Source of the DNA: Macrostomum lignano
Lineage: Eukaryota
Assembly: GCA_002269645.1 (NCBI GenBank)
Contig: NIVC01000206.1
Coordinates: forward strand, 248,001 to 312,000
Reading direction: 5' to 3'
Length of the DNA: 64,000 bases
How positions within the stretch are numbered: position 1 is the first letter of the stretch; every line of letters begins with the position of its first letter. The notes beneath the pieces are model-generated. The model had not been told where the DNA came from. It made no database searches and saw only the letters and a program-made list of their open reading frames with translations. Shown piece by piece: positions 52,829 through 64,000 of this stretch. Position numbers and translations under genes: made by a program.

Positions 52829-52959
52829 GTTGCTGTTGTTGTTGATGATGTTGTCGTTGATGATGTTGTTTTTGTTGCTGTTGTTGTTGTTGTTGCTGCT
52901 GCTGTTTTTTTGCTGTTGTTGTTGTTGCTGCTGCTGTTGTTGTTGTTGTTGTTGGCGTT
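52829..52959 (-). repeat. (CAA)n/(CAG)n tract at the 3' end of the retrotransposon
   Basis: ttg/ctg/atg triplets on the plus strand. Confidence 0.95.
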
Positions 52960-52973
52960 GCCGTACCACGGTC

Positions 52974-54281
52974 CTACTCTCTCTTCAGTCTAACCCGTTC
53001 TCGGAACTCGTTCCAAAGGGCCCGGCATTCTTCGGGCATGGCGCATAAGTCACCCATCTCCGTGATGCCGGTCTTCCTCCTGATGTTGTCCATCACTGGG
53101 CACTTCAACAGTACGTGTTCCGTGCCTTCCTCCTCGAGATTGCACAGCCGGCACGTTCCACTCTCCCTGGCTCCAATCCGAGCACCATACTCCGCCAGCT
53201 CCGTGTGGTGTCCGGTCCTGAACCTGGCAAAATCGCGCCTGGCCGCTCTGCACCACTTTCCTTCCTTCCGCCAGTCCGGCTGCTTCTTCGCGTAGATTTC
53301 CTTCGCCCTCTCGTGCTTCCACTCCATCCTGCCTTCCAGGGCTCTACGAATGTGGTTAGTGGCCGCTTTCCTTGTCCAGACGTCACCTTCCTCGCCTCGT
53401 CCCTCTGCCGCCAGCCTGTCCGCCAGCTCATTTCCTTCCACTCCGACATGTCCTGCCACCCACTTCATCGTCAGGGTTCTTTCAGGCCACTTTGCGATCT
53501 TTAGCCAGCAATGCCTCACGTCCTGCCATTCACCCTTCCATCTGTCCTGGAAAGCCCGGAGCGCTGCTTGACTGTCACTCACGATGGTGGCCGTTTTCCA
53601 GTCTGCCGCGTCCAACCAATCGATTGCCATACGGAGTGCCCTGATCTCGGCTTGCGTGGACGAGCATCCCTGTCCCGCTGATCCTCGAGCTTCGCCCTGC
53701 TTCGTGCTGCCCCGGTAGATGATGAGACCAGCTCCACCTTTACCGTCCTTGCCCACCGACCCATCTGTGTACAGGATGTAGTCGGTGTCTCTGTTCGCGA
53801 TCCAGCTCTCTGCGGTTTCCTTGTTCTCTTTCTCGGTTGCCTGCCGGTTCGTGAGCTCCTCCAAGGCAACCTTAGTTCTGATTTGAACCCACGGTGGGAT
53901 TGGCCTGCTCCGCTCTTCCGGCTCCGGCTCCGGTAACGCCAGTCTGGTCCAGTCCTCGCGACACTTCTGCCTCCAGTTGGGCTTCTTCAGCCTCTTCTTC
54001 ATGCGCCTATTGGCCATCTCATTCCTAGGCGAGTCCGCTGGTAGCCGTCGGTAGCTATCATAGGTCTTCAGCGTCTGGAACTGCAGCCTGCTTTCCAGCG
54101 ATGGTAGCCCGGCTTCTTGCAGCACCATTTCCACCGGCGTGCTGGCCAGTACTCCGGCAATGGCTCTGGCGGCTGCCCGCTGGCACCTCTCCAGCTTCTC
54201 CAGGTGTACCTTGGCCAGCCATGGGTACCATGCCGGGGCCGCGTACTCCAGAATCGGTCTCACTAGCGCCAGGTAGGCCAA
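52974..54281 (-). CDS. Retrotransposon C-terminal part: post-RT region, RNase H, CCHC knuckle
   Basis: AYLALVRPILEY; YTDGS; WVAGHVGVEGNELAD; CRLCNLEEEGTEHVLLKC. Confidence 0.9.
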   Translation of the reverse strand: MAYLALVRPILEYAAPAWYPWLAKVHLEKLERCQRAAARAIAGVLASTPVEMVLQEAGLPSLESRLQFQTLKTYDSYRRLPADSPRNEMANRRMKKRLKKPNWRQKCREDWTRLALPEPEPEERSRPIPPWVQIRTKVALEELTNRQATEKENKETAESWIANRDTDYILYTDGSVGKDGKGGAGLIIYRGSTKQGEARGSAGQGCSSTQAEIRALRMAIDWLDAADWKTATIVSDSQAALRAFQDRWKGEWQDVRHCWLKIAKWPERTLTMKWVAGHVGVEGNELADRLAAEGRGEEGDVWTRKAATNHIRRALEGRMEWKHERAKEIYAKKQPDWRKEGKWCRAARRDFARFRTGHHTELAEYGARIGARESGTCRLCNLEEEGTEHVLLKCPVMDNIRRKTGITEMGDLCAMPEECRALWNEFRERVRLKRE

Positions 54282-56430
54282 TCTCCAAGTTTAGACCTCC
54301 CTCCAAGCAACACAGCTTCTTCAGCAGGTGTGTCCTCGCCCTGGCCTTCGTCGATAGCATCCTCACGTGTTCAGCGAACGTGAGCTTTTGGTCCACCGTG
54401 ACCCCGAGGTATCGGGGGGCCGAGGTCGTTCTGATGATGTCATCTCCAATTCTCAAGTCGAGTCGCATTCCTCGCTCCGCTTGGTTGTTGCTATAGACGC
54501 ATGACTCGCACTTCTTAGTGTTCAAGGGGAGGTACCAGGCCCTGGTCCACTCGTGCACCTTCCGTAGTGCCTCCTGGACTCTAGCACATGCTCTGCCTAC
54601 TCGTTCTTCGGTGCTCCATAGGGCTACATCGTCAGCGAACATGCGGAATTGGACGCCGGTAGTCCCGCATTCCGAGGGCAGGTCGTCGATGAATACCAGG
54701 AACAGCAGGGGGACAGTACCGCCCCCTGTGGAAGCCCCTGCTTCATACACACCACTGCGCCTTTCTCCTCGCCTAGCCGCACCCAGTTGGTGCGATTGAC
54801 TAACCAGGCTTGTATCCATCTGATCATCCGGCCGTCAATCCCTTTCTTCAGCAGCTTCCAGAGCAACCCTGTTCGCCACACCTTGTCGTACGCCTTGGTG
54901 AAATCTAGGGTGGTCAGAACGGTCCGTTTCCGATCGTTAAACCCGTCGCTGATTTCCTGGCATAAGCTCAGCACCTGGTCCGTGGTTGTTCTGCCCTGTC
55001 TAAATCCGGCTTGGGCCTCCGTCAGCAGTTTCTGGTTTTCCAGCGTGTGCTTCAGACGGTTCGCCAGGACTCTTTCCAGCCACTTTCCAATCGTCGCAGT
55101 GAGACATATCGGGCGGTATGACACGATGGCCTCTGGATCCTGATTCTCCTTCAACAGGGGCACAATCTCGCCGGTTCTCCAGTTCTGTGGGACTTCGGCG
55201 TGCGCCCATGAGCGTTGGAACAGCTGGGCTACCGCTTTGATCATCTCGGTGGGCAGCTCCTTGAGTAGCCTCGGGTGGATTTTGTCTGGTCCCGGCGCCT
55301 TTCCGCCGTCCAACTCGTCCAGCGCATGCTGCACCTCCTCCAAGGTGATGTCGTCTCCCTCGTTCCGACCCGACTGCGTTCTCTTGAGCGTCCGATCGAC
55401 CTTTCTTCTGAGCGCTCTGTCCTTTTTCTTGATCTGGTAGCTGCTTACCGCCGCATACTCCTTGGCGAATGCTGTGGCCTTCTCTCTGGGCGTGATGTAC
55501 CTGCGGCCCTTGTGCGTAAGCACCTCGGCCGGGGCCCTTGGGGCACTCCCGGTGCAACCTCTCACCAGTTGCCAAATTTTGTCCACAGCGTTGCCCCCTG
55601 CCAGCTTCTCTTTCCACTTCAGTCTTTCGAGGTTCCTGGTTTCTTCCTTCGCTCTCTCCACCGCTTCCTGCGCTTCCTCGACCTGATCTTCGTCATTTCT
55701 GTACCACACCACTTTATCTCTCTGCTCGGCTATATCCGCTACCTCCCTGTCCACCACAGGCTGTCTGCCTGTGACCTTGATCAGTCCCACGCACCGGTAA
55801 GCCGCGTCCAGAATTTTCTCTCTGATGGCGTTCTCCATGTCCTTAGTCTTGCTTCGCATACCGATCTCCTCCGTAGCCGCCTTGAGCTCCGCCCTGTATC
55901 TTGACCAGTCCGCCTTCCGCCAGTTCCATGCCCATCTCGTCGGCCCGACCTCCCCTTTGCTGTGATGTCCGGCTTGTATGATGATCGGGGTGTGGTCGGA
56001 TTCCGACTGCTTAAGGCATTTCCAGGTAGGGCTCCATTGTTTCCACACCGCAGAGCTGCAGCATGAGATGTCTGGCGTGCTGCTGCCCTGGCCGGTTCTG
56101 CCTCGTCTGGTATGGCTGCCGTCGTTGAGTAGCACCGCATCATTCTCGGTCATCCATTCCTCCCAGGCCTCTCCTCTGGTGTCTTCCACGGCGCTGCTGT
56201 CCCAGGATGGGCTATGGGCGTTCAGGTCTCCCAGCCACCAGGCCTGGCCATTGTCTGCGATCTTATTCATCTGTTCTGGGACCTTGTCCTTGCTGTCCCT
56301 TACCGGTGGCGCGTACAGGTTGTAAAAGCGCTGTATAATTCCTCCCGGCCAGTGGATCTCGATACCCAGAGCTTCCAGATCGCCCTTGTTCCCTGCGTCG
56401 TCCTGTTCGACTCCTGGGCACTTGGGGCCG
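54282..56430 (-). CDS. Retrotransposon APE (C-terminal half) and reverse transcriptase, frameshifted at 54708-54712
   Basis: ORFs 54624-56270 and 54058-54819 join at LSP/LLFLVFIDD; FADD catalytic motif present. Confidence 0.9.
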
Positions 56431-58290
56431 CTTGGGGGGGGCTCGCCCTGTCTCCAGCACGATCCTAAACGGCAGGTCTTCTCTGACGAAAAAGGCCACT
56501 CCTCCCCCTCGGGCTTGCTCCCTATCCCTGTCTTTCCTGAGGATCCGGTATCCCGGCAGACTTGGTATCTTATCCTCTGCGCGAAGCTTCGTCTCTTGGA
56601 TCGCGATGATGTCTGCTTTCCATACTGCAGCCATGTTGTTCAATTCCGGCATCTTGGGGCTCAGTCCGTCGCAGTTCCACTGTATTATGGTGATCCTGTC
56701 TATCTTGGTCGTCTCCTTCTTCTTGCTCCCCAACTTCTCTTCCAACCTCTCTCCCTCGTTACTCTTGCAGTGTAGGCACATCCATCCTCCATGTTCCTTC
56801 CACCGCTTCACCAGCACCCTGCTGCTAGTGCCTGCGCATCCTTGGTGGACTTTGGCTCCGCACGAGTGGCACTCGAGGTTAGCTTTCCGTAGTCTGCCTC
56901 TGCACTCCGCGCACTGTCCCTTCAGTTCAGCCTTGGTCTGTTCTGGTCGTTCTTCGTCGGGCCGCTGCGGGGTGTCTTCCGTGACCTGACGATCCACAGC
57001 TCCGTCCTCATGCCTCGGGCACTTCCAGCTAGCCCATTTCTTTCTGCTACCGATCCGGAGCTGCGCAGCAGTAAGCTTAGCGCACTTAAGGTGGCACCAG
57101 CGTCTGCTCTCCGAGCACACCACGCTCCACTCCCTTCCGACCTTTTCCCCGCAGACGCAGCACGGCCACTCCGGGTGGTTGCTGTCTACATTGGCCATGG
57201 CCCTTCTTGGCTCCTTGGCCGCCTCCTTTGACTTCGCACTCTGTTCAACCTCCTCTCTCGTCCCCCCACTAGAGGGCGATCTCCGATCCTCCTTCTGGCT
57301 CCGTCTACGCGGCCGTAGCTCGATCACTTCGACTTCATCGGCGTGATATTCTTCGCCTTCTTCCTTTTTTCTCGGCTTCTCTATCCTGTTGCTTTCGCTG
57401 GCCAAGTCCGTGCATTCTCGACACATCCAGGTGGCGTTGGCTTTGGCGTACCTACTTCTCCCCGAGCATGCCGCATGTAGCAGCCCTTTGCAGCTCGGGC
57501 ACTTCAACGGCTTGTGTCTAGCCTGGAACGACGCTTTGCACTGCTTGCATCTTCCCTTGGCTTTGGCTGGAGTCGCCGGGGTAACCGTGCTGGGTTCTTC
57601 CTCTGGCCACCTGCCCGTGCAGCTCTTACACACCCACGTTACCGCGTCACGGAACTTACTCAGCTGCTTCCTCTGCTCCCCTGAACATTTCTGGTGATAT
57701 TCTTTACTGCAGTCCGCGCACTGTAGGCGTCTACTACCAGCCCTCAGCGTGGCTTGGCACGCCGCGCATTGTGTCTTGCTCGCCTTGGGGTCACACTTCT
57801 TACACCTCCATTCTCCTTTTCCTCTGCTGCACCTCTCGGCCTCGGTCCTCGACAACATGGTGCACCCCAGGTGGACGTTCGCGTTGCATTCACTGCACAC
57901 CACTCTCACACTCCTCAACTTCTTGCATTCCACGCACTTCGCCTCTTCTTCCTCCTCTTCACCCTTCGGCCCAGGGTTCTTCTCCACATCGCCGGCTTGT
58001 TCCAGTTGTCTCCACTTACTTCCGTCTGGGTCTGGGTTTTCGGCAACGTACTTCGGACCATGTTCGTAAGAGTGCCTGTTTTGTAGCCACTCCCTCAGGG
58101 CGCACCGCGTGAAGGTCTGGTCCCTAGCGCCGGGAGACGTGTGTCTCCCCTCCCGGTAGGCTCCGGGAGCCTGCTGCTGCTGTTGCTGCTGTTTTTGTTG
58201 TTGTTGTTGTTGATTGCGGAGTGCGGCTCCTTCAGATGGGGACCCAGCCGAGGGCACCCAGGAGCCGCGCCACCAAGTGACGATAGGCAA
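56431..58290 (-). CDS. Retrotransposon N-terminal part: leader, 2A peptide, five PHD fingers, start of APE
   Basis: LEQAGDVEKNPGP; C4HC3 repeats; ITIIQWNCDGL. Confidence 0.85.
57967..58020 (-). other. 2A/StopGo ribosomal skipping peptide (KWRQLEQAGDVEKNPG|P)
   Basis: Exact match to the D(V/I)ExNPGP consensus with the typical upstream L-x-Q-A-G. Confidence 0.85.
58055..58151 (-). ncRNA. Candidate HDV-like self-cleaving ribozyme
   Basis: Minus strand: P2 GGACCA/UGGUCC, P3 ACC/GGU, L3 UUCACGC, P1' GCGCCCU, P1.1 UC/GA, P4 GGGAGUG/CACUCUU, J4/2 ACGAA. The P1 5' strand is not contiguous. Confidence 0.65.
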
Positions 58291-58437
58291 GGTCGTGCTA
58301 GCCGATGGGACACTGGACGTCTCGGTTTCTGGCGCTCTTCGACACCCGATGGTCTGGGTGCCTCCCCTCCAAGACGAAGACGCGGCGCCGGGCAGGAGCT
58401 AAAGCCGGGGCTCCAGTTCGTCCGTAAAGGTCGACGG

Positions 58438-58616: not shown

Positions 58617-59297
58617 CTACTGAAGCTCAATAGTCAAGCTCTGTCTTCGCCTTCTTGTTGGTCTGAGCAACAGCAGCTGCATTTGCTCTTCGCGAGATTC
58701 AGCAGCAGAAGCAGCGCTGGGCTCTCTAAACTTAGCTCGCCGATTTTCTGCTGCAGATCTTCGCTGGGATTTTCGTCTGACCATCAGTTGCGTTGAAAAC
58801 TGAGCAATTGACAGGAGCAGCAGCAGGGCCAGCAGCAGGTCGCCGCCTCCTCCGGCGCTGTCAATCAAACCTGCCCGCACTGCTTCCAGAGTTGCTATGG
58901 CAACACCGTTCGACAGCCTGGTGAAGGGGAACATGTAGCGAGAGGGCACTCCGGTTGCTTCCTCGGAGGCCGCGTAGGCGAAGGTGTTGAAGCAGCCGAC
59001 TCCAATGCCGCAGGCTAGGGAGAAGGGCCACTGCAAGCTGCCGGGGTCGTTAAGTACACCTAGCCAGCCAATTAGAGAGCAGAGAACAGTAAGAGAGCCG
59101 AGCATGTACACCTGGATGTTTGCAGTTGGTGCTATTTGTCAGATTAATTCTGCTATAATCAACCAATGTGTAGTCATTCAATCAACCAATCAATCAATCA
59201 ATAAATTTATCAACGAATGAATCAATCAAAACAATTAATCAATCCATCAATCAATCAATCAGTCAATCGACCAATCAAACAAAACAATTAATTAATA

Positions 59298-59514: not shown

Positions 59515-61675
59515 TAACAAACAATCAATCAGTCAAGGGGCACCCACCGTCAGCAGTTTTCCATCAGTCAGAAAGCCACCGAACGCACCGCCAGCCACAA
59601 AAGCCAAGCTGGAACCAGCCGAAAACGTCAGAGCGGCTGTCAGAGCCTCAGACGAGGACAGCCGCAGGGTGTCATTGTCAGACTGTTGATGAGACAAGGC
59701 GACAGGCGGAGGCCGCTGCTGTACGGAACTGATGAGGCCAGAGCGAAGAAGCAGAAGCAGGAACAGCCCGTCTGAGATCAGAGCGGCAACTAAGCGTTCG
59801 AGCAGCCACAGCAGCACAGTGCGACTTTTGTCGAACTCCTCCTTGAGTTTGAGTACAATGAGTCATGGATGCTCAATTCAAGTTATTTGTGGGAGGAGGA
59901 TCTGATGCCAATGTGATTCAGATTTTCATTTCGACTGAGATTTCAAATAGACTGTCAAATATGATTTCTATTAGGATTTTTTCAGACTTTCTATTAGAAT
60001 TTCCATTAGGATTTCTGTTAAAATTTCTATTTGGATGTCTGTTAGGATTTTTATCAGGCTTTCTATTAGGATTTCTATTAGGATTTCTATTAGGATGCCT
60101 ATTATGATGTCTGTTGGAATTTCTATTAGGATTTCTATACGATTTCTATTAGGATGTCTATTAGAATTTCCATTAGGCCTTCTATTAGGACTTCTATTAG
60201 GACTTCTATTAGGACTTCTATTAAGACTTCTATTAGGACTTCTATTAGGACTTCTATTAGGACTTCTATTAGGACTTCTATTAGGACTTCTATTAGGACT
60301 TCTATTAGGATTTCTGTTTGGACTTTTATTAGGATGCGGTTGAAATGCGAACGGGATCGAGTATAACAAATTTAAACAGACCGCAAATTTCGCACCTGAG
60401 ACAGACTCAATAGGCGATTAGGCCAATCTCTTCTCTCTCGAATTCTGTCAATAACGCTCCCGTTTAACTGCGTCCCCACGTTGCTATCCGCCTTAGCTGC
60501 TGCCCGCTGCCACCTTCTGCTTGGTCTGCGAGAGAACAGCGCCACCCCCAGCAGAGCCACCGCGCACTGACCGCCACCCAACGCGTAGAAGCCGCCTGTC
60601 CATCCAATTCTCGCCAGTAGCTGAGCAAATCCTGTCAACAGAAAAAATGCAGCCAACGAATTTCCCTGAGAAAAAGTGGTGGCCAACACTCGCAGGCGGC
60701 TGGTTTCCGGGAAATGATCGTCTATGGCCAGGGCTAGGACGGCCAGAGCGATAGAGCTCGCCGTACCGGATAGGACTGCGTCGGTTAGGACCAGGTGACC
60801 GGGATCGGAGAGTCCCGCCGACAGGACGCAGGACGTCAGGGAGAGAATGCCGACTACAGCTGAGCAGAGCCTGTAGCTTATCTGTCAGGCGGGAGTTGAG
60901 GATGTACTTTTAGCTGAGTGAGTGAGTCTCTATCCAATCAGGTGAGTCTCTATCCAATCAGGTGAGTCTCTATCCAATCAGGTGAGTCTCTATCCAATCA
61001 GGTGAGTCTCTATCCAATCAGGTGAGTCTCTATCCAATCAGGTGAGTCTCTATCCAATCAGGTGAGTCTCTATCCAATCAGGTGAGTCTCTATCCAATCA
61101 GGTGAGTCTCTATCCAATCAGGTGAGTCTCTATCCAATCAGGTGGGTCTCTATCCAATCAGGTGAGTTTCTATCCAATCAGGTGAGTCTCTATCCAATCA
61201 GGTGAGTTTCTATCCAATCAGGTGAGTCTCTATCCAATCAGGTGAGTTTCTATCCAATCAGGTGTGTCTCTATCCAATCAGGTGTGTCTCTATTCAATCA
61301 GGTGAATTATAAGCACCGCAGTTTTCAAAGTACATTAAGCCGCAAACTATAATGCTGCATGTACGTCACCTTAAACAGATCGATAACTCCAGACCACAGC
61401 GGTACGAACAGGAACACAACAGCGCTGTGACTGCAAACCAGCCAATGCATCGCCTGCCTGTCGCCGTACATGTAGTCGGCTGGCACCTGGCTTTGCAGAT
61501 TCGCCACCAGAAGATTTCGGCATCGAATGCTGAATCCAATAAAAGCAGACCAGAGCAGGCCGGTGCATATGAGGGAACAGGCGTGCAGCTGGCTCAGGGC
61601 ATTCGCTGGCTCTGATGTTGAAGAAGAACTCGAAGCAGAAGACGATTGTTGTTCCAATCTTCGATAGGCTGACAT
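58617..61675 (-). CDS. MFS transporter, monocarboxylate (SLC16)-like; exons 61675-61370, 60881-60396, 59841-59548, 59111-58617; about 526 aa
   Basis: Four phase-0 GT-AG exons giving many hydrophobic helices. AIDDHFPETSRLRVLATTFSQGNS..LLARIGWTGGFYALGG parallels the MCT pattern YFxKRRxLAxG..GWR. Most of exon 2 is missing from the ORF track. Confidence 0.75.
59150..59530. repeat. Degenerate (AATC)n microsatellite in MFS intron 3
   Basis: Direct inspection. Confidence 0.9.
59965..60330. repeat. 12-bp repeat (tctattaggact/tt) in MFS intron 2
   Basis: Direct inspection. Confidence 0.9.
60921..61305. repeat. 20-bp minisatellite, about 19 near-identical copies, in MFS intron 1
   Basis: gtgagtctctatccaatcag units. 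Confidence 0.97.
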
Positions 61676-62309
61676 GATTTTTTTTGCCACAGAAAAATGT
61701 ACGAATTGTTCGTTACCGTAGCTGCGATTGAGTTGCTATGCTTCTTTTATGAGCAATTTCTTATCTTCTGCATACAGTATGTAGACGCCTTTGCCTTTAA
61801 CTGGGTGTACAATTTCGATTTTGCACGCTATATTACAAAAGTAGGTCTGCTAACGTGACTTGTTGGTGAATGTGCCAATGGGTAATAAGATACTGATAAG
61901 AATTATGTGTATAAGCGTGGCACTGCATGCACAGTGCCTGTACACGTTTATAGCTCATACTTGTACGATCGTACGTAAGGCGGCCATTAATATGCATGTA
62001 TACTAATGAATTGAAGCTTATACTTCTTTCGGAGGCTTGATGTAACTTCAGAACTGTCGATCTACACACAGCCATGCAAAACGATGATGGTCATAAGAAA
62101 GTCCGAGAAGCGATGTAAACTAAACAGATTCCGCGGTATACGCGGCCACATTCGTTGGGGCTTGGAAGCACGAAGACACGGAGAGTGTACATTCCGCGGA
62201 CGATTAGAGAGTGAGGATCGCTGTACACTTTGTGTGAGCGTGTGAATGAGTGCTTGCGTTTGTATCCGCTCAAGAACAGCGGAATGGAGGTCTACGGGCA
62301 TTTACGTCT

Positions 62310-62945
62310 ATATAGTCTACAGAAATTTACGTCTAGAGTCTACAGTCGTCTACTTCTTAGTCTACAGACGATTACTTCTATAGAGTCTACAGACATTTAC
62401 GTCTAGAGTCTGCAGACATCTACTTCTTAGTCTACAGACGACTACTTCTATAGAGTCTACAGAAATTTACGTCTAGAGTCTACAGACGTCTACTTCTTAG
62501 TCTACAGACGATTACTTCTATAGAGTCTACAGACATTTACGTCTAGAGTCTACAGACGTCTACTTCTTAGTCTACAGACGACTACTTCTATAGAGTCTAC
62601 AGACGATTACTTCTATAGAGTCTACAGACGTCTACTTCTTAGTCTACAGACAATTACTTCTATAGAGTCTACAGACGATTACTTCTATAGAGTCTACAGA
62701 CGTCTACTTCTTAGTCTACAGACGACTACTTCTATAAAGTCTACAGACGACTACTTCTATAGAGTCTACAGACGATTACTTCTATAGAGTCTACAGACGA
62801 TTACTTCTATAGAGTCTACAGACGTCTACTTCTTAGTCTACAGACGATTACTTCTATAGAGTCTACAGACAATTACTTCTATAGTCTACAGACGATTACT
62901 TCTATAGAGTCTACAGACGTTTACTTCTATAGTCTATAGACGTAC
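62310..62945. repeat. About 23-25-bp minisatellite between RPL18 and the MFS gene
   Basis: agtctacagacgattacttctatag and variants. Confidence 0.93.
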
Positions 62946-63375: not shown

Positions 63376-63648
63376 TTAGTTGGTGAAACCGCGCGAAGCC
63401 CGGCGACCGCGGGCCTTCTCAAATTTGCGACCCTTCGATCGGACCACCGGCTTGGTGTGCGAGTGCGGCACGCCCGGCGGCCGGCCGAAATGCCGCTGGG
63501 CGGCCCGCTTTCTCGTGCCCTGCACCAGCAGCGTGTTCTGGCCTTTGGGGGCCCGCCTGGCCAGCTCGTCGAAGGTGATGATCTCTCCGCCGGCTGCCAG
63601 GAGGCGGGCGCGAGCCTTCTCAGTAACCCGCAGGGCGCACAGGGTCAC
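63376..63648 (-). CDS. RPL18: 60S ribosomal protein L18 (eL18), last coding exon
   Basis: [58 protein letters not shown]; acceptor ccgcag at 63649. Upstream exons lie outside the window. Confidence 0.95.
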
Positions 63649-63744
63649 CTGCGGTAAGAGATTAATAGGTGTAGAAAGATTTTAATTGACTATTCAAAGC
63701 TCAACTATAGTAATAAGAGCTACTAACGCCAATACTTAAGTCGA

Positions 63745-64000
63745 AGCTTTGGCGCCACAGTAGCCTAGCTAAGATTTTGGCGCCACAGTAGTCTAGCTAA
63801 GATTTTGGCACCACAGTAGTCTAGCTAAGATTTTGGCGCCACAGTAGTCTAGCTAAGATTTTGGCACCACAGTAGTCTAGCAAAGATTTTGGCGCCACAG
63901 TAGTCTAACTAAGATTTTGGCGCCACAGTAGCCTAGCTAAGATTTTGGCGCCACAGTAGCCTAAGTTTTGGCACCTCAGTAGCTTGTCTTTGGCGCCACA
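63745..64000. repeat. 28-bp minisatellite in an RPL18 intron
   Basis: gattttggcgccacagtagtctagctaa at 63773, 63801 and onward. Confidence 0.93.

Follow-up and report, generated by a model that had tools for sequence, protein, structure and literature searches.

A 2A StopGo Motif, the Reading Phase of Its Target Tract and a Predicted Split Ribozyme in an Ingi-Like Retrotransposon of Macrostomum lignano

The 64,000-nucleotide stretch of Macrostomum lignano DNA analyzed here (contig NIVC01000206.1; the window, in whose coordinates all positions are given) carries on its minus strand a full-length Ingi-like non-LTR retrotransposon of about 5.2 kb (52955..58171) with a 2A StopGo motif near the N-terminus of its protein. 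The single 2A motif of this element is in itself known and ordinary, and a second, decayed copy proposed upstream of it is not supported; the design around the motif varies a known one. It comprises a reading phase that appears to be set by the CAG/CAA target tract, a predicted HDV-like ribozyme with a split P1, and complementarity between the 5' and 3' ends. From the phase we consider it rather likely that translation enters upstream of the predicted ribozyme cut. Such a phase rule would give the 2A motif a concrete purpose, namely a fixed N-terminus whatever the entry point, and end pairing would give bipartite derivatives a reason to keep both ends. Both bear on the translation of single-ORF, ribozyme-cut LINE RNAs, on the role of their 2A motifs and on the rarity of clades with bipartite SINEs, which only a few clades make, 'for unknown reasons' in the accessible text of PMC5786205. 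Phase rule, 2A purpose and end pairing are all testable by short reporters in this species, for which transgenesis is described (PMC8629364). Among the partly accessible texts found by our literature search, no paper dealt with target phase, leader-supplied starts in retrotransposons, a split P1 or LINE end pairing, although figures in older ribozyme papers and supplementary 2A tables may show a split P1 or this peptide.

Organization and Classification of the Element

The element was delineated by its open reading frames, by Pfam matches to PHD, Exo_endo_phos, RVT_1 and RNase_H, and by comparison with a sister copy. It is preceded by a (CAA/CAG)n target tract (58172..58213, minus strand) whose glutamine frame is the 2A frame, and the first base of the element, G58171, completes a CAG of this tract; a (CAA/CAG)n tail with the remainder of the target tract follows at 52830..52954 (minus strand). 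The coding region of the window copy consists of four overlapping minus-strand frames broken by three frameshifts in the assembly. The first piece (56263..58169) encodes a ribozyme-coded leader without an in-frame ATG, the 2A motif, four PHD stretches and the beginning of the apurinic endonuclease (APE); the others, assigned from ORFs and Pfam matches, encode the remaining APE and the N-terminal part of the reverse transcriptase (RT; 54624..56639), the C-terminal part of RT (54058..54834), and RNase H with a zinc-binding C-terminus (52974..54290). An earlier sequence-only reading placed the 2A motif upstream of a PHD/APE/RT polyprotein; these domains do follow it, although in this copy they are split over the four frames. 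The sister copy, which shares 98% identity along 5,350 bases and differs in its flanks, is broken at other places, and therefore the frameshifts of the window copy represent either separate decay or assembly errors.

One ORF with APE, RT and RNase H and no ORF1, as seen in the window pieces and in an intact relative of 1,483 aa, is the layout of Ingi elements, and the Ingi-type set of a 5' ribozyme (predicted here), an N-terminal 2A motif and bipartite derivatives is present as well; clades with bipartite derivatives are listed in PMC5786205. The element thus passes the layout tests for the Ingi clade and would, by its sequence features, work like L1Tc/ingi, an assignment by layout and not by RT placement among named references: the RT tree was built without named Ingi, L1Tc and Vingi references, and none of the 120 homologues listed was named Ingi. 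A protein search with the N-terminal region returned no match among longer proteins. One protein match of 100% identity is assigned to Macrostomum lignano, in agreement with the stated source. As described in the accessible parts of PMC3383444, PMC3708506 and PMC4035085, L1Tc of Trypanosoma cruzi and ingi of T. brucei share with the window element the 5' HDV-like ribozyme, a single ORF, the N-terminal 2A motif, APE, RT and RNase H, and also have internally deleted bipartite derivatives (NARTc and RIME). Unlike them, as far as those texts go, the window element has PHD fingers after the 2A motif, a CAG/CAA target, a P1 split by two hairpins, and a ribozyme inside the open frame, with no in-frame ATG in this copy.

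The 2A Motif and the Upstream YVAENPDP Site

The class A 2A-like motif KWRQLEQAGDVEKNPGP (57967..58017, minus strand) was assigned from the ORF and from a genome-wide pattern count. The agreement with the 2A consensus noticed earlier holds: the C-terminal GDVEKNPGP (57993-57967) is in frame and conforms to the GD(V/I)ExNPGP of class A 2A peptides, and a skip is predicted between its G (57972-57970) and its final P (57969-57967). The surrounding open frame (58398..56263, minus strand), which includes HGPKYVAENPDPDGSKWRQLEQAGDVEKNPGPKG, holds both this motif and the upstream YVAENPDP. The coding pattern G-D-[VI]-E-x-N-P-G-P has 122 exact matches in the genome versus 0 for the reversed control, and thus the motif is not a chance occurrence. 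We read 100 of the 2A loci, which fall into 36 clusters, and found an N-terminal 2A motif in 26 of the 120 RT homologues listed from other sources. Between positions -19 and -10 the window motif has one Leu, plus a Trp at -16, and at least two Leu are present in 25 of the 36 clusters; the Leu count in this helix region is reported to track skipping activity (PMC13405545).

Motifs of this kind are known from Ingi and other APE-type LINEs, at times ahead of PHD (PMC3708506, PMC3894237), and the earlier statement that they are established there is borne out by PMC3708506. The animal representatives, such as Ingi-1_AC of Aplysia and the sea-urchin STR elements, likewise have the 2A motif near the N-terminus of a single ORF, at times followed by PHD; the accessible passages of these papers treat it as a down-regulator after the ORF start and mention no ribozyme, target phase or flatworm (PMC3708506, PMC3894237). 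The noted order, with the 2A motif behind a ribozyme as in L1Tc, agrees with the predicted ribozyme fold directly upstream (58171-58055).

YVAENPDP (58027..58050, minus strand) had been read as a decayed NPGP motif about 15 codons upstream, i.e. as the first of two original 2A motifs; it starts 20 codons before the real motif. This tandem version, which we regard as very improbable, draws on four of seven retained consensus positions, a score reached by 2,108 of 100,000 leader shuffles (nominal p 0.02), and on the identity of its 24 bases with the real motif at 13 positions in the window copy and 15 in the sister copy. Against it, the D, E and G are all changed, and with the latter the PGP that class A 2A peptides require (PMC12338488) is lost; a homologous upstream helix is missing too, the 36 bases upstream of the site being ribozyme P4, J4/2 and P2 and agreeing with those upstream of the real motif at only 7 positions. 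The proposed family alignment also speaks against it, with DVExNPGP in no copy at this site, K instead of E at the x position in the sister copy and in a derived SINE, and ELDP or GPAD in the nearest related families. Across the 36 clusters, the score of an upstream second motif reached 4 in two and 5 in none. Finally, the DNA of the site is kept by the non-coding SINE and overlaps the end-pairing segment described below, eight bases of which encode part of YVAE. YVAENPDP was therefore rejected as a dead 2A motif, and by these comparisons its DNA is a putative end-pairing segment plus linker.

Phase of the Leader Relative to the Target Tract

A target tract, defined as (CAR)3+ at 90-400 bases upstream of the 2A motif, is present in 55 of the 100 loci. 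Tract and 2A motif are separated by a multiple of three bases in 39 of these 55 copies; counted by distinct insertion the figure is 32 of 46, and by cluster, each represented by its first copy, 18 of 25 (binomial p 9e-5 for the clusters, without correction for kinship and thus overstated, since the families are related). The in-phase leaders have 14 different lengths, from 129 to 270, and members in phase occur in all five CAG-targeting RT clades, whose RT identity to the cluster-9 query is 25-54%. Before the first in-frame ATG, the 18 in-phase clusters have no stop in the tract frame versus 29 in the other two frames (1,863 bases). The searches at 5' ends added in-phase leaders for two clusters that had been off phase or tied (240 and 246) and for a new family (201), and 8 of the 10 full ends of cluster 9 are in phase.

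The frame thus follows the tract and not the ribozyme core or the cut, because shifts of the core are compensated downstream and the codon position of the predicted first base varies. In clusters 7 and 17 (56+175, 56+181) and in cluster 21 (19+212), the core is off by one or two bases and the total is in phase; the predicted first base takes the third codon position in most families and the second in clusters 5 and 9. An in-frame ATG is contained in the leader of 15 of the 18 in-phase clusters. The other three, with none before the 2A motif, are the window copy, cluster 17 and cluster 9, which yet has intact 1,483-aa frames; in the window element, the frame continues with neither stop nor ATG through the ribozyme into the glutamine frame of the tract.

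The rule has exceptions. Sixteen of the 55 copies and seven of the 25 clusters are off phase, one of the latter with an intact 1,518-aa frame and a junction differing by a base. Non-coding SINEs give a mixed stop control, the tract frame being interrupted by a stop in L003-5, L033, L242 and L258 and free of stops in L034/35, L237 and L238. Foreign marine relatives show no bias toward the glutamine frame (3 of 11 in phase; Fisher p 0.025, in a small sample in which some tracts are possibly not true junctions), and seven of their eight off-phase leaders have a Met of their own. Polyglutamine precedes the 2A motif in none of the 120 homologues, whose gene calls begin at Met.

Predicted HDV-Like Ribozyme with a Split P1

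The HDV double pseudoknot can be fitted by hand to the 5'-terminal 117 bases of the element (58055..58171, minus strand), and six related sequences show compensatory changes. In this fold, P1 is formed by 58171-58170 and 58131-58127 with 58103-58097, P2 by 58123-58117 with 58060-58055, and P3/L3 by 58116-58104; 58096-58095 is the P1.1 partner, and J4/2 contains CGAA at 58066-58063. A 38-base insert of two abutting hairpins (58132..58169, minus strand) splits P1 into 2+5 pairs, giving a predicted four-way junction. An Rfam search found no ribozyme match, only three unrelated weak ones. In the six related sequences, 95.1% of 162 cells are paired versus 39-48% for slid partners, a comparison that favours the structure, as it was derived from the same sequences. 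Two-sided changes affect 8 of the 29 pairs, including four of five in P2 and one of two in P1.1; P1 and P3 are invariant in this set, and the outer P1 bases covary with their partners between clades. The J4/2 CGAA, whose C we take to be the catalytic C of HDV-like ribozymes, and the G1.U pair are present in all six sequences; the J4/2 C is missing from the sister copy.

The insert interrupts what would be a continuous P1 of 6-7 bp, which is present in several families and in the derived SINE, where the 38 bases are missing. The fold of the insert has a z score of -2.83; its counterpart in the next family adopts the same fold, but with a z score of 0.11. Of 12 elements anchored by hand and drawn from four clades, 10 have inserts of 34-49 bases that are unrelated in sequence and fold as two hairpins (0-18 of 300 shuffles); the remaining two, both copies of cluster 7, do not show this fold. 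On these grounds, the ribozyme of the window element is predicted to be HDV-like with a split P1. R2 ribozymes resemble it in the HDV fold and in co-transcription with the host; in R2, as in those families of the present set that have an unsplit P1, the 5' strand of this stem can come from target bases. The R2 ribozymes of PMC3774820, as far as its accessible text goes, differ in having large loops in J1/2 and P4, a P1 stem of 6-7 bp with no hairpin pair inside it, and no 2A motif.

In cluster 6 (L180, L181), a family that does not target CAG, the flanks vary, P1 is split and J1/2 contains an in-frame ATG of the family's own. Cluster 9 (L184:7071-7200) combines a minimal ribozyme, nearly devoid of P4, with a full two-hairpin insert, and its copies are young and near-identical.

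Possible Routes of Translation Initiation

Our tentative explanation of the phase is that the AUG ending the flatworm spliced leader serves as the start codon and that the 2A motif sheds the ribozyme-coded leader peptide. A read-through transcript would be trans-spliced at a CAG of the tract, and the leader AUG would fall in the 2A frame because every AG of the CAG tract ends a Gln codon. Ribosomes would traverse the ribozyme and skip at G-P, leaving the protein with a fixed N-terminal Pro, and a later ribozyme cut would restore the exact 5' end. An element out of frame would acquire a blocking upstream frame even with an AUG of its own, and so leader splicing at the tract also explains the phase in families that have their own ATG. 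The observed parts of this model are the 2A motif, the open frame, the phase rule across families and spliced-leader genes ending in ATG. The published 21-mer of the M. lignano leader (PMC8629364) has 61 copies in the genome, and 16 of the 47 read are followed by GTAAG and are leader genes. In 36 of the 39 in-phase copies, the closest AG on the upstream side lies in frame. A flatworm leader AUG can start translation (PMC9851317, citing Cheng 2006); the ORFs initiated in this way by an in-frame 3' AUG of the leader are those of host mRNAs, with no transposable element mentioned in the accessible text.

We hold this reading only tentatively, given the lack of any observed junction and the poor setting for an acceptor: none of the 47 leader copies read (of 61) is joined to a 2A-LINE, and the tract contains no pyrimidine run, the leading trans-acceptor motif of M. 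lignano being [T/C]TNCAG (PMC8629364). No spliced-leader loose end is among those listed for contigs of four sequencing runs over the window and a cluster-9 locus; with junction repeats masked and runs that are possibly DNA, this weighs neither for nor against the model, and one contig extends 130 bases beyond the junction. In L1Tc, RNAs made from the internal promoter are not spliced, and the ribozyme acts co-transcriptionally (PMC3383444); cutting of this kind would remove the acceptor first, which argues against the leader model. The off-phase copies and clusters, the in-frame ATG of most in-phase clusters and the mixed SINE control also count against it, and the single Leu of the 2A helix region counts against the skip step. 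A still broader proposal, that a whole flatworm LINE radiation outsources its start through CAG targeting, a leader AUG, a translated four-way-junction ribozyme, 2A discard, ribozyme recutting and an end clasp, appears rather unlikely in its entirety.

Other copies of the 21-mer have different settings. In L122, L123, L125-L131, L151, L159 and L161, it lies inside the end of a repeated element, next to a shared upstream word and with no GTAAG after it; this repeat is possibly a DNA transposon with a leader-like sequence. L121, L134, L136, L153, L155, L156, L160 and L162 are several leader-headed retrocopies, seemingly of one transcript whose trans-splicing used different acceptors.

Next in standing to the leader model are two explanations that we consider improbable, to the same degree. 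In the first, a host AUG starts translation in a polyglutamine frame, the uncut ribozyme is read through, and the 2A motif frees the element protein from the fusion. Its expected phase and stop pattern are those of the leader model; moreover, in-frame stretches of 306 and 185 open codons precede, respectively, the sister copy and one copy from the next family, and the Gln runs continue past the tail. However, among the 39 in-phase copies only 9 have the Gln frame as their longest open frame on the upstream side, a stop lies 7 codons upstream of one intact copy, the flanking frames have no Pfam match, and the absence of bias in foreign relatives is left unexplained. In the second, the ribozyme drives a cap-independent start on the cut RNA, at or near its 5' end and without an AUG, and the 2A motif removes the variable leader. 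An AUG-less, ribozyme-driven start was proposed for R2 and L1Tc, and HDV-like ribozymes of retrotransposons are said, in second-hand accounts, to promote translation (PMC6765202, PMC13725137; cf. PMC8501958); splicing is unneeded, and co-transcriptional cutting fits. Under such a start, the phase from cut to 2A motif should hold, but its value modulo 3 is 2 in clusters 5 and 9, against 1 in most families (the first-base assignment depends on the predicted 7-bp P1), and the phase from core to 2A motif, which should hold too, varies.

A less probable alternative is an ordinary start at an internal AUG, the tract phase being inherited from an ancestor without present selection. The in-frame ATGs of most in-phase leaders, the common ancestry of the families and the position of the 2A motif in published 2A-LINEs, 40-80 residues from the ORF2 start (PMC3708506), agree with it; the 14 in-phase lengths, the compensated shifts, the lack of stops before the first ATG and the three clusters, including that of the window element, without any in-frame ATG speak against it. 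Repeat-associated non-AUG initiation is hardly credible, as the tracts are short and mixed with CAA.

Complementarity of the Element Ends and Derived SINEs

Just 3' of the ribozyme, the 8-base segment 58048-58041 (minus strand) is the exact reverse complement of 52963-52956 (minus strand), which lies at the 3' end of the element, one base before the tail. For 19 elements, one per cluster, we matched the 70 bases that follow the ribozyme core, taken as a fixed window, against the final 40 bases of the element, 17 of the 36 clusters being excluded for want of a usable 3' end. Runs of at least eight Watson-Crick pairs were found in 7 of the 19 own end pairs versus 9 of 342 mismatched ones (0 of 50,000 permutations), and the paired words differ from family to family. 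The excess extends over the last 100 bases (12/19 versus 29/342) and falls to background further in; a control window shifted by 60 bases is also high (6.42, 4/19), within this last-100-base signal, whereas shifting the 5' window abolishes the excess. In the 7 usable of 11 foreign elements, the mean run is 7.9 versus 6.9 (p 0.016). These results suggest that the 5' and 3' ends may pair in the cell, and the segment after the ribozyme may thereby hold the ends together for copying.

A non-coding bipartite SINE joins the DNA of the YVAENPDP site to the last 150 bases of the element at a 5-base shared word. The SINE derived from the family of the window element (L003, L004, L005, L007; about 1499-1770) is about 270 bases long, with a continuous P1 and an AT-rich P4, and has high contig depth in one sequencing run. 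Another SINE, at L171:5098-5392, has a very high copy number, and an empty-site allele is present in all four runs.

Genomic Neighborhood

The LINE is inserted in the tail of a separate bipartite SINE (58215..58430, minus strand), made up of the 5' end and the 3' end of a different 2A-LINE family (3' end of L186); the two halves of this SINE have 41 matches in this genome (G000), and insertions are likewise nested in tails at C273, C497 and C734. About 450 bases upstream of the element, on the same strand, a 173-codon open frame (58617-59138, minus strand) without a Pfam match is probably the terminal exon of a host gene. Neither AATAAA nor ATTAAA lies between this frame and the element, and thus read-through from the upstream host gene is possible. 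Further upstream, 63376-63681 (minus strand) is an exon of 60S ribosomal protein L18 (Pfam PF17135), and minisatellite arrays with units of 10-33 bases occupy 60040-60330, 60920-61300, 62300-62930 and 63750-64000 of the window.
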